A DNA stretch of 61,983 nucleotides, counting the filler, from Hausera hauseri (Eukaryota): assembly GCA_046269625.1 (NCBI GenBank). It is 13 parts of 13 records of this genome, joined end to end, with 100 filler letters (N's around TTAATTAATTAA, not from the genome) between each part and the next. Parts side by side here need not be neighbours in the genome. Positions count along the whole stretch, not along the records: positions 18,041 to 22,966 come from JBJURY010389701.1; 12 more parts are not named here. The stretch is one strand, 5' to 3'. Below are positions 4,296 to 41,426 of this stretch, piece by piece. Each line of letters starts with the position of its first letter. Position 1 is the stretch's first letter. The notes beneath the pieces were generated by a model that did no database searches, was not told the origin of the DNA, and saw only the letters and a list, made by a program, of their open reading frames with translations. The position numbers and the translations under genes are program-made.

Positions 4296-5410
4296 CTTTC
4301 TTGTCATATTGTTTTCTAAACTGTTCTTGATATTCTTGGGATAATTCCTTGGCGATCTCACAACACTTTTGCAATCGCGTTTGTAATACTTCTGAGAAAT
4401 TTTGTTCTAAATCTTCGGGATTGACTGTGTATGGCGTCATTCCTAAGTCCGTGGGAAACACGGTTTCACATCCATACGTCATAAAGAATGGCGTAAATCC
4501 CGTTGTTGGATGTAGCGTGGTATTAATTGAAACTGAGTTCCTTCTAAAAATTCGTCCCAGTCTTTTTGGTCCTTGGCCACTACTGTCGATAATATATGTA
4601 CGACGGTAGCATTCGTCCGTTCGACCATTCCATTACACTGAGGATGACATGCAGTGGTCGTTAATCGTTCGACTTCAAATATTTTGGTGATTTTCTCAAA
4701 TAATTCACTTGTAAAATTTCTCCCTCGATCCTTGAGTATCTGGTCTGGGGGTCCGTATCGGCAAATAATTCGTCTCACTACGGCTTTTGCTAAAGTTTCT
4801 GCTTTCTGATCAATTAATGCTAGCAACTCGACGAAATCAGTTAGTCGATCAATTCACGTCAAAATGTGCTTATTGTTCTTGTGAGTCATAGGAAGAGGTC
4901 CTACGATATCCATCGATATGGCTTGCATAAGCCTGTCGGGTACATGAATTGGTTTTATTTTGGCCATGTAATTTTTCGTCTTCTTTTGCTTAATTGCACA
5001 TACTTCACAAGCATTCACCCAATTCTTTACATTAATATAGATACTAGGCCAAGAGTATTTATTCATTATCCTTTCTAATGTCTTCTTCCAGGACATGTGT
5101 CCGGCTAAGTACGAGTCGTGCTCTGACATTAACACTTCGGTTCGTAAACCTTTGGGAATAACTATCAGTTTTCTTCCTTTTCGCTCGTAATATAAAATAT
5201 CTTTGTCGCTCTTGTCATTTAAGACGCAATATTTATGTCTGTGTAAATTTTTCTTTAAATTTTGTCCTCTTGGTATGACATCCTTCTTAGAAAATTCTAT
5301 AATCTGCTGGATGACCTTATCCTTTCTCTGTTCTGTTGAAATTTTAATGGCCTTATCCACCGTCAAAACGCGTTTGCGGTCTATTATTTCTTCAAGTTGA
5401 CTTTTCTTCA
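4296..5410 (-). pseudogene. pol: Integrase (HHCC zinc finger + DDE core)
   Basis: HDSYLAGH...W...CEVC; ISMDIVGPLP; RYGPPDQILKDRGRNFTS; HPQCNGMVERTN. Confidence 0.93.
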
Positions 5411-5830
5411 TTACCGTGATTGCGCTGGTTTGGTCTTTAAGCTAGAAAACGCATTGGCGTCTACGTGTTTGTTTCCTGGCTTATACTGAAATTCGATATT
5501 ATATCTGGAGATTTCTTCGATCCATCTGTTAAGTCTGCATGTCAGATTATTTTCTCGACCCTTCAAAGTCGTAACGGCCTTGTGATCGGTGAGAATTATA
5601 ATTTTCTGCCCGTATACGTAAACATTAAAATGTCGAAGTGCTTCCTTTACAACTAGAGTTTCCAATTCGGTAACAGAATAATTTTTTTCAGCCTTCTTCA
5701 AAGAACGTCCTCCATAAGCAATCGGATGCTCCAATTCTTCATCCTCTCTTTTCTGTGCTCGTTCATAACCAATGCTTTCTTTACTGGCGTCTGTCTTGAT
5801 TATGAAGGGTAACTTAAAATCTGGATATCG
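5411..5830 (-). pseudogene. pol: RNase H domain
   Basis: PDFKLPFIIKTDAS; HPIAYGGRSLKKAEKNYSVTELE; ILTDHKA; KPGNKHVDANAFS. Confidence 0.92.
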
Positions 5831-5899
5831 TAAAACAGGTTCACTTGTTAATATCTTAATCTCGTCAAACGCTTTCTGTTCGACGTCTGTCCATTTCCA

Positions 5900-6683
5900 T
5901 TTAATTCCTTTTTTAAGCAGACGATATAGAGGTGCATTAATTTTTGAATTATCTGGTACATAGGTTGTGTAATATCCGCAGAGTCCTAATCAGTGTCTTA
6001 ATTCCTTCTGGTTTTGTGGTTCCATGCAGTCTGATATTTTATTTAGCAGCGATTTATCCGGTTTCGATCCTCCTTCTCCAATTATATGGCCAAGATAGGA
6101 TACGGCGTTTTGAGCCCATTTGCATTTCTTCGGATTTAACTTCAATCTGGCTTGTTCCAGTCTCATCAGTGTGTGTTCGATATTCCTTTAAGTGTTCCTC
6201 TTCGGTCCTTGATGCTATCATTACGTCATCTAAGTATGCAAAAGCATGATCCAATCCCATTAGCATTTTATTCATAATTTTCGTAAATATAGCTGGTCCA
6301 GTAGTAATACCGAACGTCATGACATTAAATTCATAAACACCATCGTGTGTTTTAAATGCTGCCTTATAGCGGTCTTCGTCTTCTATCTCTACTTGCCAAT
6401 ATTTGGATTGTAAGTCCAGCGTAGTAAACCACTTGGCTCCTCAGAGTCGGTCTAAAGCCTCTTTCACTGACGGTAATGGGAAAGAATCTTTCATCATAAG
6501 ATTATTCAGGGCTTTACAGTCAATACAAAATCGATGTTTTGTGGTACCTTTCTTTTTGACCATGAGGATTGATAAGTACCAAGATCTATAGCTGGGCCTA
6601 ATTATATCGGCCTTAAACATTCGTTCGACTTCCTTTGTTATCTCGGGTTTTATCGAGTGTGGTGGAAGGTACCATTTCGGCAT
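5900..6683 (-). pseudogene. pol: Gypsy reverse transcriptase (stops and frameshifts)
   Basis: IIRPSYRSW...VKKKG...RFCIDCKALN...DSFPLP; MTFGITTGPAIF; FAYLDDVMIAS. Confidence 0.93.
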
Positions 6684-6785
6684 CTTCTGATCCTCAAGAT
6701 CTATTTTTTCATTCGAACCAGGCTTTTTCTTGAGCGAAATAGTCCGTTTTAATGCTTTTTAATATTCTGGCTGATCGTCATCTTG

Positions 6786-7841
6786 CTAGATCTGTGCATA
6801 AATTATTATCTCTGTTCTTGGTGGAATATTTTCGTCTACTGGTATCCACACTTCTCCCAATTTTCTATCCTTAGCGTTTTTTACGCCTTTATTTGGCCTG
6901 ATTTCTATTAGTTTTCCTGTTTGTAAGTCAATTGCAATATTCGGTATCCTTTTCAGTAGATCACATCTTAATACGACGTCGTCAGTTAATTGTTCCATGA
7001 TTGCAAATTCGTGACGAAAAGTTTGTCCAACTATTTGAACTTCTGGGTTCCATTTAAACATCGGTTTTGACATTTGGCCAAAAGCTCCTGTACTTCCTGG
7101 AACCCTTGTAGACGGTGGGTATAATTGTTCTCTCAGCGTTTGAGGTATTGAATCATTTTTGATGTAAGACGTCTCGGAACCCGTATCAATTAATGCATAA
7201 ACTTCCCAATCTTCGATAATAATTTTAGCGAAGGGTCTTCCTTCTATTACCGTTTCGAAACAGTTTGACGCTACTTTTGGGCGTTTAATTACCGATATTT
7301 TATGTCCATTGATTCGAATTTCTGGGGAGGATACTATGTTCTCTTCCAGCTGCTTTAATTCTCCGTTTGGGTAAAGCTCATTGTTTTCAATGCTTAATTC
7401 TGCCGTTTCATGAGTACTAATTAACGGTTCTTGGTTGTTAGTATGTAGTTCAGTATTCTGGAAGGTCTTTAATCTTGAGCTATCCCAAACTGTCGATCTA
7501 GTTTTTATATTTTTGGGTTCTCTCGGTGAATACAACATCTTTGGATCATCTGTGGATTGTAGGTAACACATTTTCCATAGGATCCCGTAACGTTTGGTTC
7601 CTTCATAAGGGTCTTCTACATTAATTGTTCTTTTATAGATTTCCGTCTGATATGAACTCATTGATCGTTTATCGCAGTCTTCATAGAATGGAGCGGTGGG
7701 AGGCAACATAGGTAGTGGCGCCTTTATGACAGAGTATGTCTTATGTCTGTTTATTCCTGGAAGTACTTCTCCTCCCTTAGGCTCATCATCATCTGAATTA
7801 TTCCTTCGTGTACTATGCTTGATGAATTTCCGCTTGTGCAA
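6786..7841 (-). CDS. pro: Spacer + retroviral-type aspartic protease
   Basis: YALIDTGSETSYI active site and DVVLRCDLL (the ILG.D.L motif). Same frame as env upstream and RT downstream. Confidence 0.85.
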   Translation of the reverse strand: MHKRKFIKHSTRRNNSDDDEPKGGEVLPGINRHKTYSVIKAPLPMLPPTAPFYEDCDKRSMSSYQTEIYKRTINVEDPYEGTKRYGILWKMCYLQSTDDPKMLYSPREPKNIKTRSTVWDSSRLKTFQNTELHTNNQEPLISTHETAELSIENNELYPNGELKQLEENIVSSPEIRINGHKISVIKRPKVASNCFETVIEGRPFAKIIIEDWEVYALIDTGSETSYIKNDSIPQTLREQLYPPSTRVPGSTGAFGQMSKPMFKWNPEVQIVGQTFRHEFAIMEQLTDDVVLRCDLLKRIPNIAIDLQTGKLIEIRPNKGVKNAKDRKLGEVWIPVDENIPPRTEIIIYAQI

Positions 7842-7904
7842 GAACGTGGACCTTCTTTTCCGTTTACGATGATAATATCCGATATGGCGTTCTACGTCCG
7901 TTTT

Positions 7905-8790
7905 TCATTTGTTTTCTTCGTATGCCTTTAAGAATTTTCCAAAGGGTGTTATGATTGCAGTCAATACCTTACATGAAAATCCAGTCAATGTAAATATTTC
8001 ATAGCCATTTATTACTGCTTGGATGACTGCTTTAATTATCTGTATCAAGAAATATATCGCTAAGAATCCGGATGCCGCTTTTCCGAATATCAGAAACCTT
8101 CCCCACATTTTGTAAAGTATTTCGGTTGTTACTCGCTGATAATGGTTTACACTGAGTAAAGATTCCCATTTAGCCTGCTATCGTGTATCATCGACTACCG
8201 AAGCCATAAATCGATTTAACTCATGTGTTTGTTGTCGTGGAAAGGCAAGGAATTGTCTAAAAGCCTCAATTTCCTTCGGTCTGTATATACCTTTCCATGA
8301 GGTGTCTTGAAATTTATATGTAATTCCTTTCGCGAGATTTGTTCCTTTCAATTTATTTGAAGCGGCAATAATACCTCCATTCGGTAAGCTAACCCAATCT
8401 GTCTCACTACGTCTAAACATAGGTTCTGCTAAGCTTGCCTTACAATTTTTAAGGATGGTTGGTTGGGTAGCGTTATCCAATAACACTCTCGTCAGCGGTG
8501 TAGCTAATCTCTGAATACTTTGGTAAATAACAGGAAGTTCTTGAATGCAACGTTTTTCTCTCATGTTAATAGGTACATCTCTCTTTTCACATTCGTAGGT
8601 CAGCAATACTTCACCTGTAACCCGACCGAAGATTCCTTCTCTCGTGGGAATTATTGGAGAAGCCAATTCTGGATTTGCATATATTAAAGCCATTTTAATT
8701 CTCATAATTTCCCTATCCAATTTGCAGTCATTCATTATCATTTTATGATATAATTTCGTTATTTCAACTTGCCCTTTATAGTAGAAGTAA
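7905..8790 (-). pseudogene. env: Envelope glycoprotein, C-terminal half + transmembrane region; chuvirus/Monjiviricetes-like class III fusion protein
   Basis: LYHKMIMNDCKLDRE...NPELA...GIFGRVTGEVLLTYEC...CIQELPVIYQ...PLTRVL...C....PMF...W...GIY...IEAFRQFLAFP...LN, then WGRFLIFGKAASGFLAIYFLIQIIKAVIQAVINGY. This follows the chuviral G consensus motif by motif. In-frame stop at 8178. Confidence 0.82.
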
Positions 8791-18040: not shown

Positions 18041-18790
18041 AATAACGTCTGATCACACCTTCTGGTATCACTTTCTAATTTAAATCTCATTCCATCCTGA
18101 GGGTTTGCTGAATATACTATTGTTGGTGTTTTAATCATATCTGATACTCTATCCAATCTACTCTTGGGTATCTCTTCTTTATACATACGGCCATTTGTTT
18201 CATTGAATTTTCCTGCTTTTAATAATACTGACTGACACTGATCTTTGTCAACTTCATATGACATGATTGATTCACCGGTATCTCATTCTTTATTGTAGTA
18301 ATCACATTCAGGAAATATCATCATTTTTCCTGATGATAATTCAGAGAGCATTATACTCTCTTAACTCGACTTGATAATCCTCAATAGCTACAATATTATC
18401 TAACATTCCCTTACAATATCCCGTTTTATCATTTGTTACAAAGGCTTCCACACACATTCGTTTACTTATAGGAAGTGGTTCGAACTGAGTAGTAGGTTCT
18501 ATAATAGCATTATTTCTATACCAGTAGCCACAGATAAAATGAAATTGATTTCTTCGAACAAAACATTCTTTTACTTTAGTTACGAATTCTGATTCTTGAT
18601 AAACATAGTAATCCTCGTCTATCTTTGTAGTTAATAATTCCGGATTGGCAAATGGACATTTTTCTTAATCTAATATAGAATATATAGGGCTTTCTTTAGC
18701 TTGACTACAGTCATAAGCAATGATTGAGTGTTTTTGGCAAAAGACTGAACAGAAGGAGTATGGGTATAACTTTTCTTAACCATGATAAGT
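18041..18790 (-). pseudogene. env: Envelope glycoprotein N-terminal half with internal signal peptide; chuvirus-like class III fusion protein
   Basis: WLRKVIPILLLFSLLPKT / IIAYDCSQAKESPIYSILD*EKCP...YYVYQESEF...KECFVRRNQFHFICG...MC. This matches the chuviral G N-terminus pattern (AYDC...SL.D...C...Q...C.V......CG). Downstream ...VYSANPQDGMRFKL...RCDQTL. Confidence 0.78.
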
Positions 18791-20468
18791 CAAAATCTGG
18801 TTGTAAGTTTTATTGTCTGTCCGATCGTTGACGTGGAATATATTCCCCTTGTCGTTGAGTGGCTGACACTGACTCGTATCGTCTTTTGAATCAAGCTAGT
18901 AATTCATCCTCCTCTGCACTTTACCCATCCTTCAACATTGACCTTTAATGCTCTTGTGGCTATTTCTATGTTTCTTTCTATTTCTTCTTGATTCGGGTTT
19001 ACACCATTCATTACCATTATTTTATATAGAAGATATGGCTGTTATAATTTTGTTACGGGATATACCTGTTCCCATCATTCTGGATAAAATATCTCTTGGA
19101 TTTCGTTTATTCTCTCGTCCGTAGGGATATCTGCAAATTGCTCGCTAACCTTTGCGATTTCATTCCTTATAGCTTGTATTAATGAGTCTGGTATTTGCAG
19201 ATTAGTGTTGAACTTGACGAATGCTTTATGCATTCTTACTAATAAAGTTTGTGGTAGTGTTGCCAAAGATACATTATTTACATCGTATTCATCTTCTGTT
19301 GTCAGCAATCTTCTGACGACTTCATCATCTCTGGCTTTTCTACCCTTTAATTGATAAAGTTTTGTTGTTCCTTTTGGTTTTCCACGCGTTCTTTTATCTG
19401 TTTGTATTTGTTCAGTTATAGGGATATTCATTTCAGTTCCTATTTGTGGTGTTCCTTGATGCTGTCCATGTTCTTCCATTTGTTTCTGTCTGACATCGGT
19501 TGTAATCTCATCGATTGCCTCTTGTTCAGATTGTCTATAAATAATGCATATCGGGTTATATCTGTTTTCCCAGATCCCTACCTCATATAACGTTTCATAG
19601 TCCATTAACACTCTTCCATAGGAACGCAAATCTAATTCTCCTTGAGGTTGTTTTATCTCATTAATTTTATGTTTCAAAGCATCTATCGTATCTAATGACT
19701 TCATTCTTAAAACATGAAAGTCTTGATTATATTGTTGGAGAGTAATCATTACTTCTGGATTTTCTCCGAGTGTTCTCACTCTTTCTGCGTATCGATAAAT
19801 TATATATCGTACGACTTTCTGATATGGGCTTGTGCTCGCAGCATACATTAGCAACAAATCTAACAAATTAGCAAATTGATGATGACTGATTGTTGGTAAC
19901 AATAACATTGAGAGGTCCTGTCTGAACTGAACTCCATCAATTAATTTCTGATTAGCATAACCAGATATTCTTCGAACTATTTCCACGCCATCCTGGTCTA
20001 AGCCTATAGATGAACTATCATATTCCAGTGGTCGTTCTACTTTCTTCTTATTTTTCCTTTTGGTTTAGTTTCACTTTCCACAGACTCACTTCCAGAAGGT
20101 AAATTCGTTTATGGGGTATTTAACTCTTCTTCTATAAGAGGTTTATGTTTCCTCTTTACTTTCTTCTTTTCAGTTTTCGATTCTGATTCAGGAAACTTTT
20201 TAGGCCTACCAACCGGAGCTACAATAGTATTTTCATTCAACATTTTGTCTCTGTTCACAAATCTGATGTTTCTTTAATTCAATATTGCTGTTTTAATTCA
20301 GCTATTTTATCCTCATCGTCTAACGTATTAGTCTTACTTTCCTTTAGTTTTGATCTAATCTTTTGCTGACGTTTTTCTATCGTATCTTCAGGCTTTGTCT
20401 GTGGTTTCATGTTCTTTATCTGTATCAGATATATTACCAATCATTTCGACTTGTTTCTTTTGATTAGA
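18791..20468 (-). pseudogene. Gag extension: AT-hook (PVGRPKK), helical domain, ubiquitin-like domain (19534-19752), second basic hook, helical domain
   Basis: VMITLQQYNQDFHVLRMKSLDTIDALKHKINEIK...LDLRSYGRVLMDYETLYEVGI aligns with ubiquitin PSDTIENVKAKI...LIFAGKQLEDGRTLSDYNI. Confidence 0.75.
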
Positions 20469-21380
20469 TTATCCTTGACTAGGATAAGAACGAGCCATAT
20501 GTTCATATTTTTGACATGAAAAACATAGTGGCTGTCCATCTTGATTAACCGGACGTTTTTTCATTGCAGACTTCTGAGGTTGATTTTGCCACGAAACCTT
20601 TTTCTGTTGGTGTTCTGGCTGACTATACTTCTGGGAGAATTTGCTGAGAATTCTTTTTCTGCTGAATATTTTTCGACTTTTTGTCATCATTTTTAGGATG
20701 CTTCTTAATATTTTCCAATCTCTCATAATTAACTTCAATTTTCTTAGCCTTACTAACAGCTTCTTTATGAGTCAGGGTCGGCAACAGTAATGTAGTTTTG
20801 TATTTCCTTAGTAACTCCATAACAAAACTGAGCCAGGAGAGCTTCTTCTATTGTCGTTATTTGCATAGGCTCTCTGAGCCAATTTCTGAAGGGTACATGC
20901 ATATTCTTGCACACTTTTACCTTTTCTCTGACGTCGCCTGTTAAACTCTCCAATTCGACCTTTTCCTGATGGGTCTACTAAGAGTCTTTCTTCCTGGGCG
21001 TCCTCAAGGCTAGCCCAATCAGCCTTATCATCATCCGAAAGCTGAGCATAAGCACTAAGTGCTATTCCTTTAAGATGTAAGGGAAGACGTTGTATTCTAA
21101 GCTCATCTGTCCATGCATAGCTTTGTGAGTACATTTGATATTGCATCAAAAACTCACTATAATCTTGGTTTGGTTTTCCTTCAAACTTATCCATCGGGAG
21201 GACCATCGTACCATTTGTACTTGAACCGGTTCCTATTCCATAACTAGACATAGGTTTCTTTTCTGTACCTAATTCAATCAAAGGATTTTCGTCTGCTGAT
21301 TCAGAACTGCTTGCTGAATCGGTGCGTGAAGTTATAGTATTAACGTGTATACGTTTACTTCGTAAAGAATACGACGCCAG
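20469..21380 (-). pseudogene. gag: Gag (capsid + degenerate CCHC knuckle CFSCQKYEHMARSY), putative CUG start
   Basis: MDKFEGKPNQDYSEFLMQYQMYSQSYAWTDELRIQRLPLHLKGIALSAY...W..L; RRQRKG.SVQEYACTL; QFCYGV. Confidence 0.88.
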
Positions 21381-21386
21381 TGTGCC

Positions 21387-21404
21387 TCCTCACTCGGGGC
21401 ACCA
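21387..21404 (-). promoter_or_regulatory. Primer binding site complementary to elongator tRNA-Met (TGGTGCCCCGAGTGAGGA)
   Basis: 18-nt site 1 nt after the LTR-terminal CA. Complement of ...CCTCACTCGGGGCACCA, the 3' end of invertebrate elongator tRNA-Met. Identical in copy B. Confidence 0.85.
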
Positions 21405-21405
21405 G

Positions 21406-22121
21406 TGACAAGTTTATGAGTTTAAAAAGAAGTTTGGGTTTTCTCAACCCTAAACTTATTCTCTAATACAATAGTAATAATAGTCTAGGGTAATTTATTT
21501 CCAAAACTCTTCTTTATTTAGTCTTACGAGCAGCCTGTGGGGTCTGCTTTACAAATTAATATAGATCGGTGAGTGTCGATCACTAGGAGGTACACTAGTG
21601 TCGTTTTCCCTTTATTTAAAGTATATTAGACAACCGTCTTATGGACGGAATACCAAAAAGAGGGACCCAAATATTAACTTAATTAACCTTAGTTAAGTTA
21701 AATCAAAACAATGTTACACTTAAAAATATATTAAATGCAAAATACTAAAATGATTAACAAAGAAAATGACAATACTTACAAGAGTTGTAATACATAGTAG
21801 CTCAGCAAAGAATAGTCACCAAGATTTATTTGTAATCGCTAATGTCAATGTCGACTAAAAATCTCATGCTTATATAGTATATTATCACACACATTAATAC
21901 ATAATTAAAATTGATTTTTCTCACAAAATAATTACATAAGAATATAACGTAATACAGATAATATCAAATGAATTATCATTGATAAAAGAACAAAGATCAT
22001 AAAATCACATGGATTATTATTTGAATATTGAAAAACAATTGTCAATAAAAATTATCATCATAGTCGAACAATGTTTGTCAGATACCTAATATGAGTCCAA
22101 AAGTCCAACTCGTTGTCAACA
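21406..22121 (-). repeat. LTR of copy A (716 bp, TG...CA)
   Basis: Starts TGTTGACA directly after the PPT and ends TTGTCA before the PBS. Shares blocks with LTR B (GTCTTACGA, GCCTGTGGG, AGGAGGTACACT, ACAACCG, TACCAAAA). Confidence 0.85.
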
Positions 22122-22132
22122 CCTCCCTCCTC
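22122..22132 (-). promoter_or_regulatory. Polypurine tract GAGGAGGGAGG
   Basis: Directly adjoins the LTR-initial TG. Confidence 0.8.
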
Positions 22133-22966
22133 AGATGGCGTTATCCTCAACGCCAGAGGGCAGGTCTCTAAGACTCCATTGTCATATTTATAGTTAGCGG
22201 AATCTAACCGCAGCCACTGATTTCCTTTACGAATTTTCTTTTTTAGTGATTGTTTCATGAATTTTTTGTAGTCTTTGTGACATCAATTATAATAGCATCA
22301 TTAGCAGCAAGTGTTTGACTGGTAACCGATTGATTGGAGGGTAGAATGTCTGAAGGTCCATCAATGTCCATTGATTCTGGAATTCGTTTGGAGGTCTCTT
22401 TCATGGCTGGAAATTGTTCATGTGTAGAAAGCATTTCTGTAACTGATTTTTGGTTATCTTTATTCGTTTCATACTCATGAATCGGTTTATGGATTTTTAG
22501 CATCACTGTAGCATTCTCTTTTGTCCGAAGAGGATAGACGATATCATTATATTAATGAGAATTTGTTTTTGGGTCAATTTCTTTTCTGGGTTTATCTCAT
22601 TATGATAGAACAGATCTCTGATACCATGAATTGTGTTAATGTCAACCAAATCAAGATGTAAATTATTACAAACGTTCATTCCAACGATTAAACTTCCGTT
22701 GAGTTTTTGTCTGATTAAAGATCTAATTTGGTAAGAATCTATCTACCATTGTATATCTGTTTCTTTTAATCCGGTGATTTGACTATTATAATTGTCAATT
22801 CGGTCCATTGGGGTGATTACTTCATCAAGGATAATATATCCTTGTAGATCCATGATGGTTATTTCTGTTAGTGTAATTTCTTTGTTACGTAATGGTGTTA
22901 GTAGATAAGCGGAATTGACGGCTAATACATTTATTTTATTTTCCTTTATTTTTGGTAATCGAGAGA
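22133..22966 (-). pseudogene. 3' ORF with REX4/ISG20-like DEDDh exonuclease fold lacking catalytic residues
   Basis: VLAVNSAYL...EITIMDLQGYIILDEVITPMDRIDNYNSQITGLKETDI...LNGSLIVGMNVCNNL...IRDL...RTKENATVMLKI. The reading frame runs, with breaks, up to the PPT. Confidence 0.7.
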
Positions 22967-23066: not shown

Positions 23067-25538
23067 CAACATTGGCCTTCAAGGCTCTTGTAGCTACTTC
23101 TATATTTCTCTCTATTTCTTCTTGATTCGGGTTTGCACCATTCATTACCATTATTTTATATATGAGATAGGATATTGCTGTCAGAATTTTATTTCGGGAT
23201 ATACCAGTCCCCATCATTCTTGATAAGATATCTCTCTCCTGAATTTCATTTATCCTCTCATCTTTATGTATGTCTGAAAATTGTTCACTAATCTTTGCAA
23301 TCTCATTCCTAATAATTTGCATTAATGAATCCTGTATTTGTAGATTGGTATTAAACTCAACAAATGCATTATGTTGCCAATGATACATTATCTACGTCAT
23401 ATTTATCTTCTGTTGTTAGCAATCTTTTAACAACTTTGTCATTTCTGACTTTCCTACCTTTCAACTGATAAAGTTTCATCGTTCCTTTTGGTCTGCCATG
23501 ATTTCTTTTATCTGTTTGTATTTGTTCTGATATGGGAATGTTCGCTGCCCTTTCTATTTGTTGGGCCTCATGTTGATGCTCAGTTTCCTGTGTTCCCTTT
23601 CGCCTAACATCAGTAATAATTTCGTCAATTATTTCTTCGTCCGACTGCTTGTAAGTGATACACACAGGATTGTATCGGTTTTCCCAGATACCTACTACAT
23701 ACAATGTTTCATTATCCATGAGAGTACGTCCATAAAAACGTAACTCTATTTCTCCTCGAGGCTGAACAATCCCATTGATATTATTTTTCAATGTCATTAT
23801 TGTATCCAATGACTTCATTCTTAGAACATGGAAATCTTGGTTATACTGTTGTAACGTAACCATTACTTCAGGGTTTTCTCCAACTGTCCTCACTCTATCC
23901 GCATAGCGATAAATTATGTATCGTACAATATTCTGATATGGGCTTGTACTCGCAGCATACATTAACAGCAAATCCAGTAAATTAGCAAATTGTTGATGGC
24001 TGATTTTTGGGGATAGTAGCATAGACAGATCTTCTCTAAACCCAGTATTATCAATTAGTTCTTGGTTGGCATAGCTGGATATTTTCCGAACTATTTCTAC
24101 GCCATCCTAGTCTAAATCCACAGATGAAGACTCATAACTTGGGGATTTTTAATTTATTTTTTTTTCCTTATTCTTTTTATCTTTTCCTTGGGTTTACTTT
24201 CTTCACTTGATTCACTTTTTTCACTTTCACTTCCCGAACGCAGGTTAATTTCTGGGGTCTTCAGTTCTTCTTTTTGTATCAAAGGTTTATTCTTTTTCTT
24301 GACCCTTTTCTTTTCAACATCCCATTCTGATGCGCGAGTCTTTTTAGGTCTACCAATAGGAACAATGAGTGAGCTTTCATCCTTATTTTCTGTCTTCTCT
24401 CTCAGGTTTGTTGCTCCTTTAATTCAAAGTACAGCTGTTTTAGTTCGGCTAGCTTATCTTCATCCTCTATCGTATTAGTTTTACTTTCGTTTAATTTGGA
24501 TCTGATGTTTTGTTGTAAATTTTCAATCGTTTCTTCGGGCTTTATATCTGTAGTTTCATGTTCATTATCCGTGTTAGATATATTACCTACTATATCAGCG
24601 TTCTTTTCTTTTGACTTGACTGTCCTTGGTTAGGGCAGGTACAAGCCATATGCCCATATTTTTGACATGCAAAGCATAGTGGTTGCCCATTTTGATTAAC
24701 CGTTGGTTTCCTCATCGCGGATTTTTGAGGTTTGTCTTGTTGCCATGTAACCTTCTTCTGCTGTTGTCTTGTTTGATTCTGAATTTTATAGAACGGTTTT
24801 TGAAATTTTTTCTTTAACTGAGGGTTTTTCATCTTTTTAGCATCAGTTTTGGGAGGCTTTTTGGTATTTTCTAATCTTTCATAATTCAATTCTATCTTCC
24901 TGGCCTTACTGACAGCTTCTTTATATGTGTCAGGATCAGCAACTATAATATAATTTTGTATTTCCTTAGTAACCCCATATCAAAACTGAGCCGGAGGGCG
25001 TCTTCTTTATGTCATCATCTGCATAGGCTCTCTGAGCTAATTTCTGAAGGGCACATGCATATTTTTGCACGCTTTCACCTTTTCTATGACGTCGCCTGTT
25101 AAACTCTCCAATTCGACCTTTTCCTGATGGGTCTACTAAGAGTCTTTCTTCCAGGACGTCCTTGAGGCTAGCCTAATCAGCTTTTTCATCATCCGTAAGC
25201 TGAACGTTAGCACTAAGTGCTATTCCTTTAAGATGCGAGGGAAGACGTTGTATATTGAGCTCATCTGACCATGCGAAGCTTTGTGAGTACATTTGGTATT
25301 GCATTAAAAACTTACTATAATCTTCGTCCGGTTTTCCTTCAAACTTATCCATCGGAAGGACCATCGTACCAGTTGCATTTGAGGCAGTTCCTATTCCAGA
25401 GCTAAACATTCGGTTCCTTCCTATTTGAGTGTTTCGTTCAACCAAGGGAGTTTCGTCTGATTCAGAGCTACTCCGTGCTGAATCAGTGAGTGAAGTTGCG
25501 ATATTAGCGTTAACTCTGCTTCGAGTGTTATACGCCAG
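23067..25538 (-). pseudogene. gag: Gag + AT-hook + ubiquitin-like extension, copy B
   Basis: ORFs 25173-25445, 24590-24889, 23369-24022 and 23067-23388 are near-colinear with copy A. Confidence 0.85.
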
Positions 25539-25544
25539 TGTGCC

Positions 25545-25562
25545 TCCTCACTCGGGGCACCA
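25545..25562 (-). promoter_or_regulatory. PBS, elongator tRNA-Met
   Basis: TGGTGCCCCGAGTGAGGA, identical to 21387-21404. Confidence 0.85.
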
Positions 25563-25563
25563 G

Positions 25564-26277
25564 TGATAAGTTTATATGCTAAGGTTTATTGGTCTTACGA
25601 CCTTAAACTTATACTCTAAAAGCTTGAGTCCTTTCCTTGCCTCAAGCTTGACTTATTTTATTATGGTAATCAGCGGCCTGTGGGTCCGCCGAAGTCTAGT
25701 TACCTTGATTATTCTATCTTAGTGTGCGAGTTTCGTCAGGAGGTACACTGACGTAGTTTACCTTTATTTATCGAATTTTGCACAACCGACCTTTTTAACG
25801 GAAGGTATACCAAAAGGGGTCCTGATTTTGAATTAATTATGCCTATTGCAATACAATACTCTTATTAATCGATTCTTAAAGAAAAGCAATGAGACAAAAT
25901 ATTTAATAAAAATTATGCTAGTAACCAAAAATACGTAATAATGATCAAAATACGTAATAAAATGAATATAATCAAAAATACTCACAGTTATCACAAATAT
26001 AATTCATGTCGCATCAAATGTCAAAATTGTGTGTGTTATAGTACAGATTATGCCAGTATTTAGAGTCACTGGTTGTTGAATAAAATTTACATAATAAATA
26101 AAAATTCATTTTCATAAATTAAAAGAAAATACAAGTCAATTTAAAAGTATGTAAAAAAACGAAAATCAATTTGTCTGTCAACAAAAATCAATTTAATTTT
26201 CCCAAATGTTTATTTTGTGCTCGCATTGTTAGCTTGTTTATTTTGTGCTCGCCTTGTTTACTTGCATTGTTTGTACA
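25564..26277 (-). repeat. LTR of copy B (714 bp, TG...CA)
   Basis: TGTACA after the PPT AAGGAGGGAGA (26278-26288). Ends TTATCA before the PBS. Nearly the same length as LTR A. Confidence 0.85.
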
Positions 26278-26289
26278 TCTCCCTCCTTA

Positions 26290-27205
26290 GATCATGCTGT
26301 CCGCAGAATCAGAGGATAGGCTTCTATAATTCCATTAGAATCTTGATTTAGTACTAAATATTCGCCCTTTTTTATCTCTTTTTTTAAGGTAATTGTTTCT
26401 ATTTTAGTGGTTTTCTTTTTCTTTTATGAAACTTTCGTTAGATCAACGAGGATTGATTCGGAAGAGCTGGCTATCGTAAGTGTATTCAGATCAATGTGAC
26501 AATTCTTTGTAAAAGTTGGTACTTGGTCATCAGTAGATTGGATCAATATTAATTGACTTGATGTAGATTGGGTAGATTTTGGATGGGAAAAGATTGGTTG
26601 AACGTCTGGAAAATCTTGTACATCCATTGGAACTTCGAACAATTCATCTTGGTATTCCGAAATTGTATTGTAAATTTTTAATATGGTTGAAGCTTTGTCC
26701 CGTGTTCTTTGGGGGTACGTATTGCCATTATATTTAGTAAAAATTTGTTTGGCTGTGAATTCCCGTTGGGGGTTAATATCTTTACGATATAACAGTTCTC
26801 TGATTCCTAATAAATTATTATAATCGTATCTGAAGATGTAATAATTAACTTTCCAACGATTTCTTTCCTTAGGTACGGTTCTTTATGATAGGAATCTTTT
26901 TGTCCAATCATGTCATCTCATTTTAATCCAGTAATATGACTATTATAGTTGTCTATTTTTTCTCTTGGGCACAAAATTTCATCTACAATGATTCCACCAC
27001 CCAGATCCATTAAAGTTATTTCCACCGTGGTCATTTCTTTATTTCTAATTGGGGTGAACAAATATATCAGATTTACGGCCATTACTATTATTTCTTCTTT
27101 TGATCTTATTGACCTTCTAGTAAATGATAATCCTTTTTCTACGTCGATTTCTTTTTGCCTTGGGGTAATGTACTTAGGGATTTGATAATCCAAACGTGGT
27201 ATTTG
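26290..27205 (-). pseudogene. 3' ORF with inactive DEDDh exonuclease-like domain, copy B
   Basis: VMAVNLIYLFTPIRNKEMTTVEITLMDLGGGIIVDEILCPREKIDNYNSHITGLK...IRELLY...PQRTRDKASTILKI. Confidence 0.7.
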
Positions 27206-27446
27206 NNNNNNNNNNNNNNNNNNNNNNNNNNNNNNNNNNNNNNNNNNNNTTAATTAATTAANNNNNNNNNNNNNNNNNNNNNNNNNNNNNNNNNNNNNNN
27301 NNNNNTCTGTCAATGATTTATCGGAATTGCACGGTGAGTCCTGTTTTTGTTTATAGAACTCCACACAGTTTTTTTATGTTCTTAAAATATGTATATATAT
27401 AAATAAATTACTAAATTATCAATTAGAAGTTAGTGGAATTTTTAAT

Positions 27447-30400
27447 ATGCTAACGATCGGCACCAGTCTAGTATTTTTATTCATTGGGACATATTCTCAA
27501 AATCAAATTTATGACTATAAGTACTGCATTATTGGAGCTGGACCAAGCGGACTACAAATGGCTAGTTTTCTTCAAGAAAAGCAGCGTAACTATGTCGTGT
27601 TTGAACGAAATTCTATTCCTGGAAGTTTCTTTGATAAATGTCCTCGACATGATACATTAATAAGTATCAACAAAATTTACACAGAATCCAAGAACTCCGA
27701 GTTTAACTTGCGACATGATTGGAATAGTTTGATAACTGAGAAAAAAAATTCAAAATTTCGCTTTTATTCCGATAATTATTTTCCGGACAGAAAGGAGTAT
27801 TTAAATTATCTCTCGGATTTCTATAAATACGAAAATCTTAACGTGCCTTTCAAAACATCAATAGAAGTTATTCAGAGGAACCATTCAGAAGATTTGAGAT
27901 GCGCCAATAGCCCACTAAATGTTGCAGTTGGATTTCAAATGAGTTTCACAGCGACAGTTGATTCTGGAACGACTGCGTGGTTAATTTTGAATCCTGATCC
28001 GACGAACCCTACGAAAAACATGACTATTGGAACGGTACCAGCTGTCAATTCTGCTTACGTTGTTAATCAAACTTATTCTACTGTGGGGGTTTATACACCA
28101 GTGATATCCATTTGTAACGTACTTGGTTGTCTGAACTGCTCAATCAACATGCAAGTTCAATATTTAGTTATTAATTCAGATTTTCAAATACAGACAAATG
28201 GATATTATGATTCAGCATTTGCCAATTGTTCATCAACTATCAAGTTTAGTGGAACTAATTTTCCCACTGGCTTGACTGCTACGTTTAACTACTCAGACGG
28301 TTCAACGCCAAGCAGCGTAACTATAACTGCAGCTCAAATACCTTTTACGTTCGTTCGCCATCTTATAACTTACGGATTCGGCACCGTAAATATTGTACTA
28401 TCAAATTTGGTCAGCTCACAGAATTATTTGGCACAGGTTGGGGCTTTCCAAAAATTCAGTAGTTTTTCAATTATGGTTACATGGGGTGTACAAAGACTTC
28501 CTGGATTCGGAAGTGGAAATAATCAATATCCAGCAAAGCAGGCTCTTTATTTTCGACCATCAGCACCATCTGTTGGTACTGTTGTCGGTTACATCTTTAT
28601 GTATACCCCAACGACGAATTTAAGTGCGATATACACGTGCAACGTTACACTTACCAATGGGGAGTTTCCGTTCGTTTTTACTGAGATCGGATCATATAAC
28701 GTTAGTTTATTGGCTTACAATCCAATCGACCAAAGAATATCATACATGGTTGTTAACATTGGAGGAAGTATTCGGGACATGATGATTTTAGCCCCCTCCA
28801 AACCGCTGTATCCAAATGTAAAGGGAACCGTAATTATATCTTGGTCAGTCATCGACACTACAGCTTGTATCTGTGTTGATATGGGTAACAAAACAAAATC
28901 GATATACGGAGCCACTCAAGGATGCACAAATTGTCCCTCGTACAATTATACTGGGCAGGTTCCAGTAAACAGTCAACTTGTGCTCAATGTCCAGTATATC
29001 GCAATTGTCAGTTATACCATTAAAGTATTGGCGTATAATAGCATAGAAAGTGTCATGGAGAACCGCACAGTTACTGCGTCCTATAGTAATTGCAATCTGC
29101 CAGTCATAACTACAAACAATAACAGTGTACAAACTGCATTTATTTCATATCGTGGAAGTCAAACAATTATAAGTGCGCAAATTGTTGATTTACCATGTAG
29201 TGTAACATTAAACAATACAAAATTATGGACTGCAGAAGTTCTTGAAACCACATATTATCATCCTGTCGGATCAGTTGATCTGTCTAGTATTGACACGCGC
29301 AACAACACTCAGATCATTATACCCCCATTATTTCTGAATTACGGATTTTATCGATTTCGATTCACCGTTACCATGGATACAAATTCCACTGGTGGATATA
29401 TTTTTAACAATTATAACTACACCTATATACAAATAATTGCAAGTCCTCTAGTTGTCACTTTCACATTTGGTGGTATCACAATTATGTTTGCTGGATTAAA
29501 TCAGACCATATCGTTGGATCCGACAAAGTATTCACACGATCCGGATGTGGCAGTTCAGAATTTTTCCAACTGGACTTGGTCGTGGGGTTGCAGAAATATT
29601 AATGAAACCGAAAATTTAGTAAATTTTGTGTATCAAAAACCACAGGGTTACAATTTCCCTGCCATCAGAACAGGATGTTTTGGAGACGGACCAGGACGTG
29701 TAAATTTCAGTATTCCCGCGACATTTTTCGGAACAAACATGATTGATGGGAATGAGTATGTCGTGTCTGTTAATGCAACGACAGTGGATGGCCGTAAAGG
29801 CACAGCGAAAATAAATCTTAAAATGGTTCCGGGAATACCTCCAAATATTATTATTCAATGCATGAGACCGAAGACATGTGCGATTAACCGATTTGGTCCT
29901 TACATGTATCAAGAAGTAGCGTTTAACCCATCTGACGATTTACTGGTCAATGCGTCATGCAGTATGCCTGATGGAACTGCCTGTGTTAATGGGATGTGGA
30001 AGTTGACATTATTTAATGAAACAACGAATACGTATTCGACACTAACACAAAGCCAGACGAGTTCTTATGTTCGAGGTTACACTTCTCTGCAAATGTCTTT
30101 ATTGACAAATTTCTTTTCCGACTACTACACTTATAATCGATTTCGTATTTGTTACGTCGTCACACTACCGTCGACATATGGTGTTTCGTGTATCCAATTT
30201 TACGTTGTTCCGCTACCGAGTAATGTAAGTTGCACAGTTGATAAAACGGTGGTAAGTTCAAATGATCAAGTCTGTCTCCACTGTGCAGCTCCAGCATCAT
30301 ATACATACAGAATTTACGGCAGTTCGCAGAACCAAATGACACCAATTGGGTCTAACAACAGTGGCATATTTTGTAGCATCATCCCGTATCAGATTACTCC

Positions 30401-31412
30401 TCAGGCTTACTACGTTCAGATTACGAATGCCAATGGAGGCTACATTACAATCAATGTGGCCAATATTACTGTTACTCCGATGAATGATTCACAAATAAAT
30501 TTAGTACTTGGTGGATTAATGAATGGTCCAGATCAGAATCTAACACTAACAAGTTTTAAAGGAGATTATAAAACAATGTCACAAATATATTTAAAGTATA
30601 CGTCGGTAGTTACTGCCTCAATCACTAGTTTAATGGCCGCTTCGTTAAATAATTCCAAACAGACATATGGAGGATCTGGATACAATTTTGTCCCTACAAC
30701 GACGAGTCCCATTGTAACTATTGACGAGTTACCAACAAGTAAAAGAAACCAACGAGATTCACTGAGTGGGATCATAACACAAATGACGGCTAATCTAAAA
30801 GACACGGTTCCAGGGGATATCGTTGGTCTCGATTGCATGAATCGCAACAGTCAGTCTCATGTTGCATCCAAAATACTTCATTTAGCTGGAAACCTCAGAG
30901 ATATGCAAGGTTCGGCGTCCAGAGATGATGTTCAGCAGATTGCCACCAATTTGCTTTCCGCTAGTCTTCAAACAGATGCGGCGGCGAATATTCAAATAAA
31001 GACAGGAATAAAACGTGATATCCAATATTCAAAGAAAAACTTCCTGGATTATGATACTAGTTTGAATAGCAATGCACCATCATATATGTGTGTGGATAAT
31101 TATCAACAAGCCAGTAATCTTTTAACAGTTGACACGAATGCAGGTTTTCAGACTAAAGTGGCATCCGGCATTGGTAGTACAGGTGCATCGACCAGAAGTA
31201 TAGTTACAAAAGTTTTGAGAGATATTACAGTAATCGATGATAAAACGTTGAACACTGTCTATTTCGGTGTACGAGAATTAGTTGTAAGTGAATGGGAACA
31301 ACTGTTAACTAATGAAAACATCCCAAACCATGCAAAAAATTCTGATTGCAAATTGGCCCACTTATCTCATTCTGTCACAATGGATCATTTACGTCCAACT
31401 CGACGCTCATCC
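27447..31412 (+). CDS. Chimeric ORF (more than 1320 codons, 3'-partial): signal peptide + FOXRED2-like FAD-binding N-terminus fused to four PKD-like domains and a REJ module of a polycystin-1-like protein
   Basis: YCIIGAGPSGLQMASFLQ...FERNSIPGSFF..PRH..LISINK.YT...N.EFNLRHDWNSL is the FOXRED2 signature, up to about 27900. Then repeated Y...G.Y.V...A.N PKD motifs and the REJ motifs IIPPLFLNYGFYRFRFTVTM, ISLDP..YSHDPD, WSWGC. Confidence 0.8.
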
Positions 31413-36343: not shown

Positions 36344-39300
36344 TGTATTAAAAGACAATTCACCTATACGTCAAACACGTAGAAAAATATATATAGACAC
36401 ACCGAAATTAGATAAACGTTCAAATTCAGAAAATAGAATCGAGTTAGACGCCACTGAACAAAACGAGCAATTTAAAATCCCACTTGAGAAGCATAAAATT
36501 AATAAAGCAAATTTAGAGATAAATTACGTATCTAATATGGCAGCAGATAATCCACAAGTAGCGCAGAAACAGGACATCTTTACCTTTGATTCTCTGAACT
36601 TGCCGGCCTATGATGGTGACCCGGACGGGCTTAATGAATTCTTGAGAACTTATAAATTGCACGCAGAAGGTGCTAGCCTTACTCCTGAAGTAATGATTAA
36701 ACGATTGTCATTATATTTGAAAAATTTAGCCACTGACGCTTATAGTGAGCTCACTAACGATGAGAAGAAATCTTGGTCCTCCCTGGTAGGAATAATGATC
36801 GTAGCTATAGAAATCGGGTTGATAATCGAGGAAGGGAAGACAGACAATTATTACCGACGGTAACGTCACAGCAGAAGCTTATGGCATTTCATAACAGAGT
36901 ACAACAAAAGGGTGAATAAGTAACCCAGTTTGCATTCGCGTTGAAGAAACTCGCTAACAGTTACATAAACACACTGAGGATAGCCAACGTGGCTAGAGCC
37001 AAAACAGACGCGAAACGCGACGCCGCGGAAAAAGCAACACCGCCAGACCTAGACGTTATGATGACGACTGAATTGATCCATGGTATTTGGTCCCGAGATT
37101 TAGTTAAACAGTTAATTTTGGCTAGACCTAAGAACTTTAAAGGAACTTTACAATTAGCTCAAGACTTGGAAATGGCGCTTGATAGATATGCCAAGCACAG
37201 TGATAGAAATGACAGGAATAATGATCGTAGCTATAGAAATCGGGTTGATAATCGAGGAAGGGAAGACAGACAATTTATGGGTAATAGAAATTATGGGAAT
37301 AGAAGTAATAATAATAGTTACAGAAAAGGCCAAAGCAATAATCGCACTAATGAGCGGAATATGAATAGATCGGATTTTAACTGGGATAGGAAGAGGAAAC
37401 TATAAAGGTTCTAACTACTCAAATCGTAATGATTACAATCGAAATAAGGATAATCGAAGAAATACAGATAATGCTCAGAGTTTGTCGAATCAGTATAATA
37501 AAGGTACAAATAGACCTAAGTCACCTGTGAACAAAGACGGTCGACAAAGAGTCGGCAGAAATGGAAATTTAGTTTGTTTTACTTGCGGAAGAGAAGGACA
37601 TATTTCAAGGTCATGCCCAAACCCACGTAGCGTTTCATTTACTGAGCCTAATAAGACTAGTATGATCAGAGTTAACAAAAATTTAGAAGCAAAGTATGGT
37701 GTTCGTGGAAACACAGGTACTATCTTCGATATACAAAATTTACGAAGATTTTTAGACGCTCAACCCGAGACTATTAACACACAAATTCTGATGGCCAGAA
37801 AGGAATATGAAGACAAACTAAGGCTATTAGAAGTATATCATGGTTTAGCAGAATCCAAAACTGAATATGAGCATGCAATGGCACCCAAACGGACTGATAT
37901 GACGCTGAAAAAGAGTGTTCCGATGAGTAATAAAATATCTGATAAACCAGGAACTTCGACATAAGTCGACTTAGATGCAGAATTTGAGTTCACAGTCGAG
38001 AAGGTGGATAAGTCTACCGAGGACGTTACAGTAGAAAAAGAATTTATAGAACCATTAATACGTAAAATTATGAAAAATAGAGGCCGTAGCCCTTCCTTAA
38101 AGACAAAACGTAGAAGTCGTTCACACTCCAAAGTAACTAGAAAGAGAATCGAAGAAACGGAAAATACAAACGTCGTTGTAGAAAGCGACGTAGAACATAG
38201 TTTAAAAACACCGGAAATTGGTCCATTCACACCTATCGAGGCAAAAGAATCTATAAAATTAACTAATGAAATTAACAACATTTGCCCAGTTCCCACTAGT
38301 GAGGAGGAAACGGTGAATATTGATGATTTTGATCCAAGAAAGTGGAAAGTCCGACGTTCGTGGAAAAATGCCGAGGAGTTAAGGAAAATGAGAATTAGAT
38401 GCCACGACCGGAAATAATACAACGTAACTAGGAAAGACTCAAGCAAATCAGCGAACAAGTGGATATACCCGGAAAAGAGCAACAGTTTGCCGAAAGGTTA
38501 TATAAAAGTTTAAAATTATGCAGCGAAGGAAAGCTTTATGAAGCAATCGACTTAAGACAACCTGAAGAGGTATCATCTGAAACGTTGTTAAAATGGAAGC
38601 ATGAATTAGGATCATGGATTAAAAGTGGAGTCGAATTTTCGAAAGGATGGAACAAAAACGAAGATCGTGTCGACACAAAGGTTGCAAAAGCTCAAACACT
38701 TTTGTCTAACCTAGAAACAAACTCGAAACGAAAGAAAGTAGCGCGCAATCTAGAGCGCATGATGGACGAAATTCGCTGTACAATGATTAATCGGGTTAGA
38801 AAAAAACAGGTTAGTCATCAAAGTAATATCGATTTAGAAATATTGGGTGTAGACCCAGTAGATATTCCTTCCTTGATGGAGATGATAAAAATCGCATTTG
38901 CTGTGCCTAAACAATATAAAAACCTAGAAAACCGAATTAAAATAAAAAATGAAAAACAAGCACAGATTTATAGCTTGAGAAACCGAGTTATGTCCCCAAA
39001 CCACGAAGAAACCCAATACGTAATAAAGGCTTGTATCGTAGAATTTGATGAATATAAGGACGAATTTAGTTATGTCGGCCGGATTATGAACTTCCTAAGA
39101 GGGCCAGACGATGAGTGGAAAGATGCATATAAGATGCTAGATAAGACTATAATGGCAAAGCCAATAATCTCAAATTAGTTGTCGGAATGGTCTGAACTAG
39201 TAATGCGATTAAGCAAATTAGTGAAAAGCCGTAAGAAGGAATTCCCGAAGAGCGAGACTTCGAAAAAGAAACAATTAGAAGAAAGCGCACGTAATTTAGA

Positions 39301-41426
39301 TACAATACTAGCAAAAATAGACATCCAAACGCGATTCGAAGCATCACGACGACCTAATTTCATGAAGAAGAAACAAGAAGCAACGATACTGGAAGAGATA
39401 TATAAAATGGTCGAAGAGACGGATTTTACCGAAAAGCAAAATATGACTTGCAGTTTTTATCCAAGATTGAGAAATGTCCTATTAGAAGGAGTTCAACATT
39501 TAACAGATAAACCTATCGACCAGATTTCTGTCTAAGACATCGAAACCCTAGAAATTGGTCCGGAACACCAAGCCATTTTAGCGGACACTGAAATTTCTGC
39601 ATGAACCTCAAGAATGGATGATTCGGTCAGATCAGAACTTCCATACTGAATTGATAAAGATGAGAAATGACCAGAATCTTAGTTTTCAAGAATCTAAGTT
39701 CGTAAAGAAATTGTCAGACGCGATAGATCCCGACTCAAAAATTATAAATGAAATGTATTGGTAGAAATGGCAGAGATTAATAAAGAGAGGATGAGACAAC
39801 TGATGCCAAAATTACAGCAAGTCGAAGAAACGTACATCAAAACAAAACAAAGAGCAACGAGGCTAGATGAACTGGCAAAAGAATTCGAAATTTACTGAAA
39901 CAAATATGCTTTTACGGAATCAGAAATCAAAAATAATCGAGAATTCGTACAAAGGTGGCAAAAGGATGTAATTATCGAACTAACAGATTATCATCAAAAA
40001 GGACTCATCGATTTTAACGAATTCGGTGAGTTACTGAAAATGATTCAATATGCTTGTGGAAACGGAATAGGCTTCCGAACTACGCAAATGAAGGAAATAC
40101 AACCCAGATTGAAGGAAATTCGAGAAAATGTGAAAAAAACAAACACAGCCTTAGTAGACTACGGACTTCCAAACGCTGGAAACCAACCAGAATGGGATGC
40201 ATACTTCGACACAATACTTGCCGAAAAACCCGTGACTACAGTACAACTAAATGCGATAGAAACATGTCCGCAGAACAGGAGATTCAATGTGGAGATGCTT
40301 CTGGATTCAGCGCTAACTGAAAGGGATTTAATTGAGCTAATTAATGTAAACATTACTGAAAGTAAGTTAAGACAACTTATTCCGACATTAAGTAAATTAT
40401 CTAGTGAGAATACGATTTATAGCACGGTGCCGAAACCTCTAATAAGGAAATACGCTAAAATCTTAAGAGCTAGATCTGAGGTAACGATGAAAGTAATGGT
40501 ATCATCCGAATGGATAGACGAAAAAGAATGTGAGTTGACTACATATTCCTACGTAAAAGATGTAAGAGAATGGTTGTTAAATAATGGCGGAACAAATGAA
40601 CTAAATTATGGATTTTACTTTAGAGATAGAATACTCGACGACCTAGAACAATTAGTAGATGTCGAGATTATCCCCGACGAAACAAATCGTATAGTAGAAA
40701 TAGTGGCTAACGAACAGACGAAAGAAGAAGCCACCCGTAAGGCTAAGAGAGAGCAATGCGTCGGACAAATCATGGGAGTCCGAGATGCTGCAATGTATTT
40801 TGAGTATTTACAATCTGATGAGGATAAGGAACAATATGACATAAATTTAGTACCAATGAGTGAAATAACCACTAAGGACCCAAGGCCGAAACGTCCAGTT
40901 GGAAGGCCAAAGAAAACGCGAGAAGAAGTGGACTATAATGGAGAATTGATTAGAGAACTGTGGCAGATGGCGATACCGGCTCTCAGTACAAACAGTGAGG
41001 AATTGAGCGAGATAATGAAGAGTTTAATACGAATTGTAAATTATTCGAGCCCTCGGTGTGATATATTAGATGATAAAGAAAGAATAATATTCGATGCAGC
41101 CAAAATTATGCGAATTTCACGTTTTAAACTATCAAAAAGTAACCTAACCGATGAATCGGTAATCGAAAAGATCATGGTAGAATACACTAATGAGGAGTTG
41201 AGAAAGGTATCACTATACGTAGCCATCAAAATAAACCCTAATTGGGCGAATGAAATCAATATAGCTATAAGTTTAGCACTAAAAGCAGCAAAAAGATTTC
41301 CCTGCGAAGTGAATTGGTCAAGACTGTTTGATAAGGAAGACGACAGACAGACTAGCAATAAATTCGACGATATGTTACGTAATTTAACAACGATGGATGT
41401 TGGCTACCGGAAAAATGAATTAAATT
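36344..41426 (+). mobile_element. gag: Related Gypsy-like element with a much longer gag extension: capsid, N/R-rich tract, CCHC knuckle, about 2.9 kb of unknown helical region, Ubl (40487-40711), AT-hook (40889-40915)
   Basis: LPAYDGDPDGLNEFLRTYKLHA...MIKRLSLYLKNLA.DAY...W; CFTCGREGHISRSC; MKVMVSS...YVKDVREWL...FYFRDRILDDLEQLVDVEI; KRPVGRPKK. The helical flanks of the Ubl align with copies A and B (IEKIMV/IYKIMV, LALKA/RALKA). Confidence 0.8.

Follow-up and report, generated by a model that had tools for sequence, protein, structure and literature searches.

The window is a stretch of 61,983 nucleotides from Hausera hauseri, in which 13 contigs (4–6.5 kb each) are joined by N spacers, and its GC content is ~35–40%. 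Three unlinked contigs carry retroelement remnants: copy A (contig 18041–22966), copy B (23067–27205) and copy C (36344–41426). In each, the Gag region is extended by a helical domain, a ubiquitin-like domain (Ubl), a basic motif and a further helical segment (Table 1); stops and frameshifts interrupt all three. Both families occur at high copy number, with 9909 (copy A) and 15290 (copy C) contigs of one public run aligning, mostly at <95% identity.

Table 1. Features of copies A, B and C and of the contig carrying Pol. P0004, P0005 and P0006 are the protein matches described in the text.
Feature	Copy	Position	Strand	Evidence or remark
Polypurine tract (PPT), directly before LTR	A	22122..22132	-	11 purines then TG
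Single LTR, 716 bp, TG...CA	A	21406..22121	-	PPT and PBS-like bounds; inferred from ends
Primer-binding-site (PBS)-like motif, TGG start, 18 nt assumed	A	21387..21404	-	44-nt repeat D17 (98% identity to B)
Gag capsid region, frameshifted downstream	A	20860..21248	-	Pfam Retrotrans_gag E 0.0016; tblastn to P0004
Degenerate zinc knuckle	A	20484..20525	-	Pfam zf-CCHC E 0.027
Upstream GRPK motif	A	20199-20210	-	A/B lineage only; missing here in C, P0005, P0006
Helical domain preceding Ubl	A	19753..20001	-	C vs A z 7.3; aligned in P0005/P0006
Integral Ubl	A	19534..19752	-	Pfam E 2e-5; rad23 E 4.8e-4; pN 0.155 vs pS 0.747 against B
Downstream basic motif GKPK	A	19372-19383	-	GRP in other lineages
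Likely Bcl-2-like domain, frameshifts near 19030-19075	A	18900..19250	-	tblastn to P0004
Hydrophobic segment, degenerate, likely internal signal/anchor	A	18730..18790	-	Matches P0004 residues ~784-803
Chuvirus-type fusion glycoprotein, N-terminal part, broken, cut by contig end	A	18043..18727	-	65-75% to P0004 807-1071
Single LTR, 714 bp; PPT 26278-26288, PBS-like motif from 25562	B	25564..26277	-	Sequence ends
Gag, broken; CCHC 24635-24676	B	24351..25403	-	Pfam, tblastn
Upstream GRPK motif	B	24343-24354	-	Motif scan
Helical domain	B	23867..24106	-	82% identical to A at aa level (80 codons)
Integral Ubl	B	23648..23866	-	Pfam E 0.003; 77% to A
Downstream GRPK motif	B	23486-23497	-	Motif scan
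Likely Bcl-2-like domain, truncated at contig end	B	23068..23373	-	86% to P0004 637-738
Gag capsid and CCHC (37575-37616), broken	C	36594..37616	+	tblastn E 5e-8; Pfam zf-CCHC 1.1e-6
Long charged/helical insert between Gag and cassette, with stops	C	37965..40231	+	No family match
Helical domain	C	40232..40486	+	z 7.3 to A
Diverged Ubl	C	40487..40711	+	z 10.7 to P0005 Ubl, z 6.1 to P0006 Ubl
Downstream GRPK motif (no other in this copy)	C	40901-40912	+	Motif scan
Post-motif helical segment	C	40928..41350	+	z 0.8-1.1 against P0004/P0005
Glycoprotein C-terminal half, protease, RT, RNase H, integrase, in order (Env before Pol)		4296..8790	-	Pfam; separate contig

The hallmarks of an LTR retrotransposon (TG...CA LTR ends, PBS and PPT) were found in A and B, with one LTR per contig. 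In both (21406–22132 and 25564–26288) this lone LTR has the PPT before it, the PBS after it and homologous coding remnants upstream (minus strand), a pattern that may reflect either tandem elements sharing one LTR or an assembly collapse through the LTR. A broken accessory ORF lies before the LTR (22506–22964 and 26427–27205, minus strand) and had no match in Pfam, NCBIfam or the PDB; judged by eye, we take it to resemble a DEDDh exonuclease. The LTRs of A and B are only ~46–63% alike, and the synonymous divergence of the two copies is 0.18 in the capsid region (20870–21200) versus 0.65 in the cassette (19078–20064). This mosaic divergence suggests recombination between subfamilies.

On the contig carrying Pol, the top PDB matches of the RT are Ty3. 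Its interval between protease and RT (6789–6968, minus strand), where the planarian element Burro has a dUTPase-like domain, gave no Pfam match. Elsewhere in the window, a long open frame (27357–31412, plus strand) fuses the N-terminus of an FAD oxidoreductase (Pyr_redox_3 E 2e-13) with a region resembling REJ/polycystin (E 1e-22) and would be either an intronless chimera or a misassembly. We also noted a broken, apparently intronless DEAD-box helicase copy (33560–34983, minus strand); a nearly intact non-LTR element ORF with endonuclease and RT (42521–45466, plus strand), preceded by a ~105-bp tandem array (41709–42238); and two Polinton-like polymerase B remnants, 82% alike (47773–48672 and 59488–60983, plus strand), together with an inverted repeat (59121–59295/61809–61983).

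Domains and selection in the Gag extension

A search of 1.84 billion proteins returned three matches, P0004, P0005 and P0006. P0004 (1130 aa, 73% to A) is intact and encodes in a single frame, in this order, a capsid, CCHC (residues 197–212), the helical domain, Ubl (473–522), the GRP motif, a likely Bcl-2-like domain (651–748), a hydrophobic stretch and a fusion glycoprotein (Monjiviricetes_fusion 793–980, E 6.3e-19). Copy A keeps this order as far as the glycoprotein; in B the contig ends within the Bcl-2-like domain; and the Pol contig has no sequence overlap with P0004. P0005 and P0006 both run Gag-CCHC-helical-Ubl-linker-KRGRP, and the order helical-Ubl-GRP is kept across four lineages. 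Searched against the PDB, a joint profile of P0004 and P0005 matched dArc2 in its capsid part. In other searches for relatives, a word-index search for homologs gave one match among 2959 candidates, a further one 0/1389 and one for copy C 0/7993; pattern searches for related loci confirmed 0/191 and 0/97 pattern matches; and the ESM Atlas, queried twice, gave no usable match.

A previous sequence-only reading of this DNA had placed ubiquitin-pattern domains in all three copies, and its coordinates and translations of the three segments proved correct on re-checking. Among 52 proteins scanned, Pfam ubiquitin matched the Ubl of A (24.7 bits, just under the cut-off of 25.4) and that of B, with no direct match for C; the NCBIfam rad23 model likewise matched the Ubl region of A and B (E 0.002 for B) and not that of C. 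When a profile built from the three segments was compared with the PDB, nine of the 15 matches were ubiquitin or Ubl chains (best E 0.025); the A Ubl as a single sequence retrieved just two unrelated matches. Aligned with A or B alone, the C Ubl scored non-significantly (z 1.6 and −0.1). C is tied to A and B because its upstream helical domain aligns with that of A and because the Ubl of P0005 matches both the C Ubl and Pfam ubiquitin (E 0.0046). The joint profile of P0004 and P0005 matched the ubiquilin UBL over the whole domain (E 0.0012), and the closest structures by sequence are the UBLs of ubiquilin, RAD23 and IQUB. All ubiquitin-family matches lie just or well below the Pfam cut-off: the assignment holds through weak direct profile matches in A and B, but in C it is reached transitively only, through P0005. 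AlphaFold2, with alignments of only three to four sequences, gave low-confidence models (pLDDT 42.5 and 45.8), the latter drawing the Ubl region as helices, and neither shows a beta-grasp or a Bcl-2 fold with confidence. As previously noted, none of the Ubls of A, B and C ends in GG; together with the ubiquitin-profile matches, the embedding in a larger protein and a pN far below pS, this bears out the description of an integral (type II) Ubl under selection.

The helical domain before the Ubl was modelled with pLDDT 61–74 in A. Its structural matches were generic helical ones only: a VIA structure comparison gave a best Z of 9.0, to generic helical repeats, and Foldseek found no match to the model at E 0.001. 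We also considered a death fold for this domain and obtained no support for it. The last helix before the A Ubl (19759–19791, minus strand) looks like a BH3 helix and shows a weak alignment to designed Mcl-1/Bcl-xL binders (E 0.09–0.55); the resemblance does not extend to C and may be due to chance. Of the homologous helical segments reported on either side of the Ubl, the upstream one is recovered in C, but the segment downstream of the C Ubl does not align significantly with its counterparts (z 1.0 and 0.8).

The domain order of the intact relative P0004 makes it likely that the downstream helical segment of A and B is Bcl-2-like, a neighbour that the sequence-only reading had overlooked. 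Three weak, independent, below-cut-off matches point the same way. Pfam Bcl-2 matched P0004 651–748 over profile positions 5–100 of 100, with E 0.0019 for the domain alone (19.1 bits against a curated cut-off of 31.4) and E 0.055 for the whole protein; P0005 matched TIGR00865 bcl-2 at the same place (E 0.013); and the joint profile of P0004 and P0005 found the Bcl-2/Bcl-xL chimera 5agx in the PDB at the same profile positions (E 1.5). The post-motif domains of P0004 and P0005 align with z 11.9. Pfam Bcl-2 did not match the B domain alone, the C post-motif segment or P0005, and PDB searches by single sequence and by an A3 profile found no Bcl-2. The structure model of the region, from an alignment of few sequences, is helical with pLDDT <50, and Foldseek found no match to it. 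Residues 784–803 are the strongest hydrophobic stretch in P0004 and lie ~20–35 aa past a BH2-like motif, where the C-terminal hydrophobic stretch of a Bcl-2-family protein, here a predicted anchor, is expected.

Comparing A with B over the whole ORF (245 aligned codons), we obtained a dN/dS of 0.11 (0.06–0.18). In the Ubl (73 codons) pN/pS was 0.21 (P 4e-13); dS is saturated there, with 526 of 1000 bootstrap samples giving a value, and the dN/dS point estimate of 0.04 is unreliable. The check proposed with the original observation thus came out far below 1, indicating purifying selection on the Ubl. Values of pN were 0.105 in the helical domain and 0.094 (pS 0.83) in the first half of the Bcl-2-like domain. 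These parts are constrained at least as much as the Ubl, and therefore the selected unit is the cassette rather than the Ubl alone.

Possible functions of the cassette

Cellular Bcl-2 proteins carry a C-terminal tail anchor and hold their domain on the cytosolic side of the membrane. An intact element would make one polyprotein of Gag, helical domain, Ubl, acidic linker, GRP motif and likely Bcl-2-like domain, followed by the hydrophobic segment and the fusion glycoprotein, and probably runs on into Pol. The hydrophobic segment probably serves as an internal signal directing the glycoprotein into the ER while the Gag side stays cytosolic; after cleavage it would remain as the C-terminal tail anchor of that side, in the topology of cellular Bcl-2. 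The Bcl-2-like domain would then bind host BH3 proteins and dampen apoptosis, with the Ubl as adaptor or spacer and the GRP motif binding nucleic acid or importin. The host cell would thereby be kept alive while Gag is anchored to the membrane. We give a probability of roughly 0.6 to this explanation as a whole, in which A, B and C would be decayed copies of a Burro-like Ty3/gypsy LTR retroelement and represent two of its lineages.

Across its six reading frames the window contains seven G[RK]P[KR] motifs, five of them inside the Gag extensions of A, B and C, and the observed motif count was matched by 0/20 000 shuffles in A, 1/20 000 in B and 222/20 000 in C. A and B have one motif on either side of the helical-Ubl unit, as claimed when the Ubl was described as flanked by AT-hooks, but C has the downstream motif alone; the upstream motif is confined to the A/B/P0004 lineage. 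The downstream motif holds a constant position, after a linker (acidic in the two measured cases) and before the next helical domain, in four lineages that are 18–26% identical. It reads GKPKG in A (absent from the earlier list of motifs), RGRPK in P0004, KRGRPRK in P0005 and KRGRPP in P0006, with a canonical appearance in the first two of these relatives; the full RGRP core is present in all three relatives and in none of A, B and C. Basic GRP motifs are also compatible with nuclear import or RNA binding. The AT-hook call gains from the conserved position but not from Pfam AT_hook, which gave E 8.4 at best, and we predict nucleic-acid binding or nuclear import through importin as the likely role.

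If the GRP motif were a true AT-hook fastening the capsid-containing complex to AT-rich DNA, chromatin tethering could be the main job of the cassette, a proposal that can coexist with the polyprotein explanation and that we think unlikely. It would account for the retention of the post-Ubl motif across the four lineages and for the above-chance motif counts in A and B, would suit a window GC of ~35–38%, and has precedent in the Gag-borne tethers of the retroviruses MLV (p12) and foamy virus (PMC6021111, PMC6042332). It sits poorly with the Pfam score, with the single hook of C, P0005 and P0006 and the degenerate one of A, and with the other roles open to basic motifs; a membrane-anchored product would, moreover, first need to be cut free.

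In UBLs that bind the proteasome or UIMs, such as those of RAD23 and ubiquilin, a hydrophobic patch centred on Ile44 forms the ubiquitin-receptor surface. We read the equivalent residue from alignments as the one three before the conserved glycine. It is Arg in A and B, Tyr in C and His in P0004, where the RAD23/ubiquilin type of patch is thus absent, and Val in P0005 and P0006. Such variation fits poorly with a conserved receptor-binding patch and therefore with standard proteasome or ESCRT docking. Recruitment of proteasome or ESCRT ubiquitin receptors by the Ubl, which would aid budding or regulate how Gag is turned over, builds on a suggestion made from the sequence and is weakly contradicted here; we regard it as quite improbable. 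The two Val residues and the ubiquilin, RAD23 and IQUB UBLs as nearest structures speak for it, as does the lack of PTAP, PPxY and YPxL late motifs in P0004–P0006, with which another ESCRT route could be needed. The Pol contig does, however, carry a PTAP late-domain motif after the glycoprotein, between its tail and the protease (7689–7700, minus strand), possibly by chance (PTAP has three occurrences in 123,962 codons); the Ubl has no GG, and its pN of 0.155 is not below that of the helical or Bcl-2-like domain, that is, it is conserved no more than its neighbours. Most likely, the Ubl is a folded adaptor or spacer that makes no use of the standard ubiquitin-receptor surface.

That the cassette is captured host debris without function, as the breakage of all three window copies and the weak family matches might suggest, is hardly credible and already largely refuted by an A versus B dN/dS far below 1 across every cassette domain, by an identical order in four deep lineages and by the existence of intact in-frame relatives.

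Comparison with Burro and other enveloped elements

GAG-ENV-POL errantiviruses with a gB- or chuvirus-type Env have been described by Chary and Hayashi in Platyhelminthes, Nematoda and Bryozoa, with nine flatworm elements listed (PMC13524379). They share with our elements an Env between Gag and Pol, a chuvirus-like class III glycoprotein and a Ty3/gypsy Pol; their accessory domains are undescribed there, the main text containing none of 'ubiquitin', 'bcl' or 'hook'. This published list answers the survey of other genomes proposed with the original observation. The Anakin elements of mosquitoes also combine a chuvirus-derived glycoprotein with an LTR element; their backbone is BEL/Pao, and the account of them carries no mention of ubiquitin in the sections used here (PMC7642597), whereas the RT in the window lies nearest to Ty3. 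MLV p12 and foamy virus Gag bear short basic chromatin tethers that are functional analogues of the GRP motif, but these belong to vertebrate retroviruses and are not called AT-hooks in the passages concerned (PMC6021111, PMC6042332). Troyka was rejected as a match for its CG termini and its lack of an envelope, as described in PMC12440569.

The nearest published system is the giant, gypsy-like LTR element Burro/GYPSM1 of planarians, described by Arkhipova and Yushenova (PMC6431247). Its ORF1 comprises Gag and CCHC, then several domains of host type, a Ubi2/SUMO-like domain and BCL-2, followed by a mononegavirus-like Env, PR, dUTPase, RT, RH and IN. P0004 shares the retrotrans_gag and CCHC, a Ubl before a Bcl-2-like domain (weak in P0004) and an Env in frame after Gag, and high copy number is common to Burro and the A and C families. 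In Burro, Env precedes the Ty3/gypsy Pol in frame; here Env before Pol was seen on a separate contig (4296–8790). A Ubl in a Gag extension, and the layout Gag-Ubl-BCL2-Env-Pol, are therefore already in print (PMC6431247), which the sequence-only reading had overlooked. The cassette resembles the accessory region of Burro, and a kinship between them would follow from domain order set against a published description, not from a tree.

P0004 is compact, with ~790 aa from its start to the glycoprotein and one CCHC, compared with 4873 aa and two to three CCHCs in Burro ORF1 (PMC6431247). The Smc, MATH, BIR and ankyrin domains of Burro were not detected by Pfam in P0004 or in the pieces in the window. 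The Ubl here matches ubiquitin (PF00240) and ubiquilin, that of Burro is PF11976, and the published passages on Burro make no mention of an AT-hook or of a helical domain before the Ubl (PMC6431247). In our literature search, no publication turned up that describes an AT-hook in a Gag extension of this kind, or a helical-Ubl-GRP-Bcl-2 cassette outside Burro. The compact version, the conserved pre-Ubl helical domain and the post-Ubl GRP/AT-hook-like motif in four lineages 18–26% identical, which we did not find in print, are modest additions.

A bolder proposal, which we offer tentatively and with more doubt than belief, is that an ancient core cassette, made up of helical domain, Ubl, AT-hook and tail-anchored Bcl-2, is common to an entire enveloped Gag-Env-Pol clade of which Burro would be an expanded case, with one hydrophobic segment serving as both envelope signal and Bcl-2 tail anchor and the Gag AT-hook targeting integration. 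The IAP region of Burro1 is reported, at second hand, to protect planarian stem cells (PMC13465017). Set beside Burro, the compact form would be a minimal accessory region, indicating which parts stay in the absence of BIR, MATH and ankyrin, and it offers small, testable domains for studying how virus-like elements interfere with host apoptosis.
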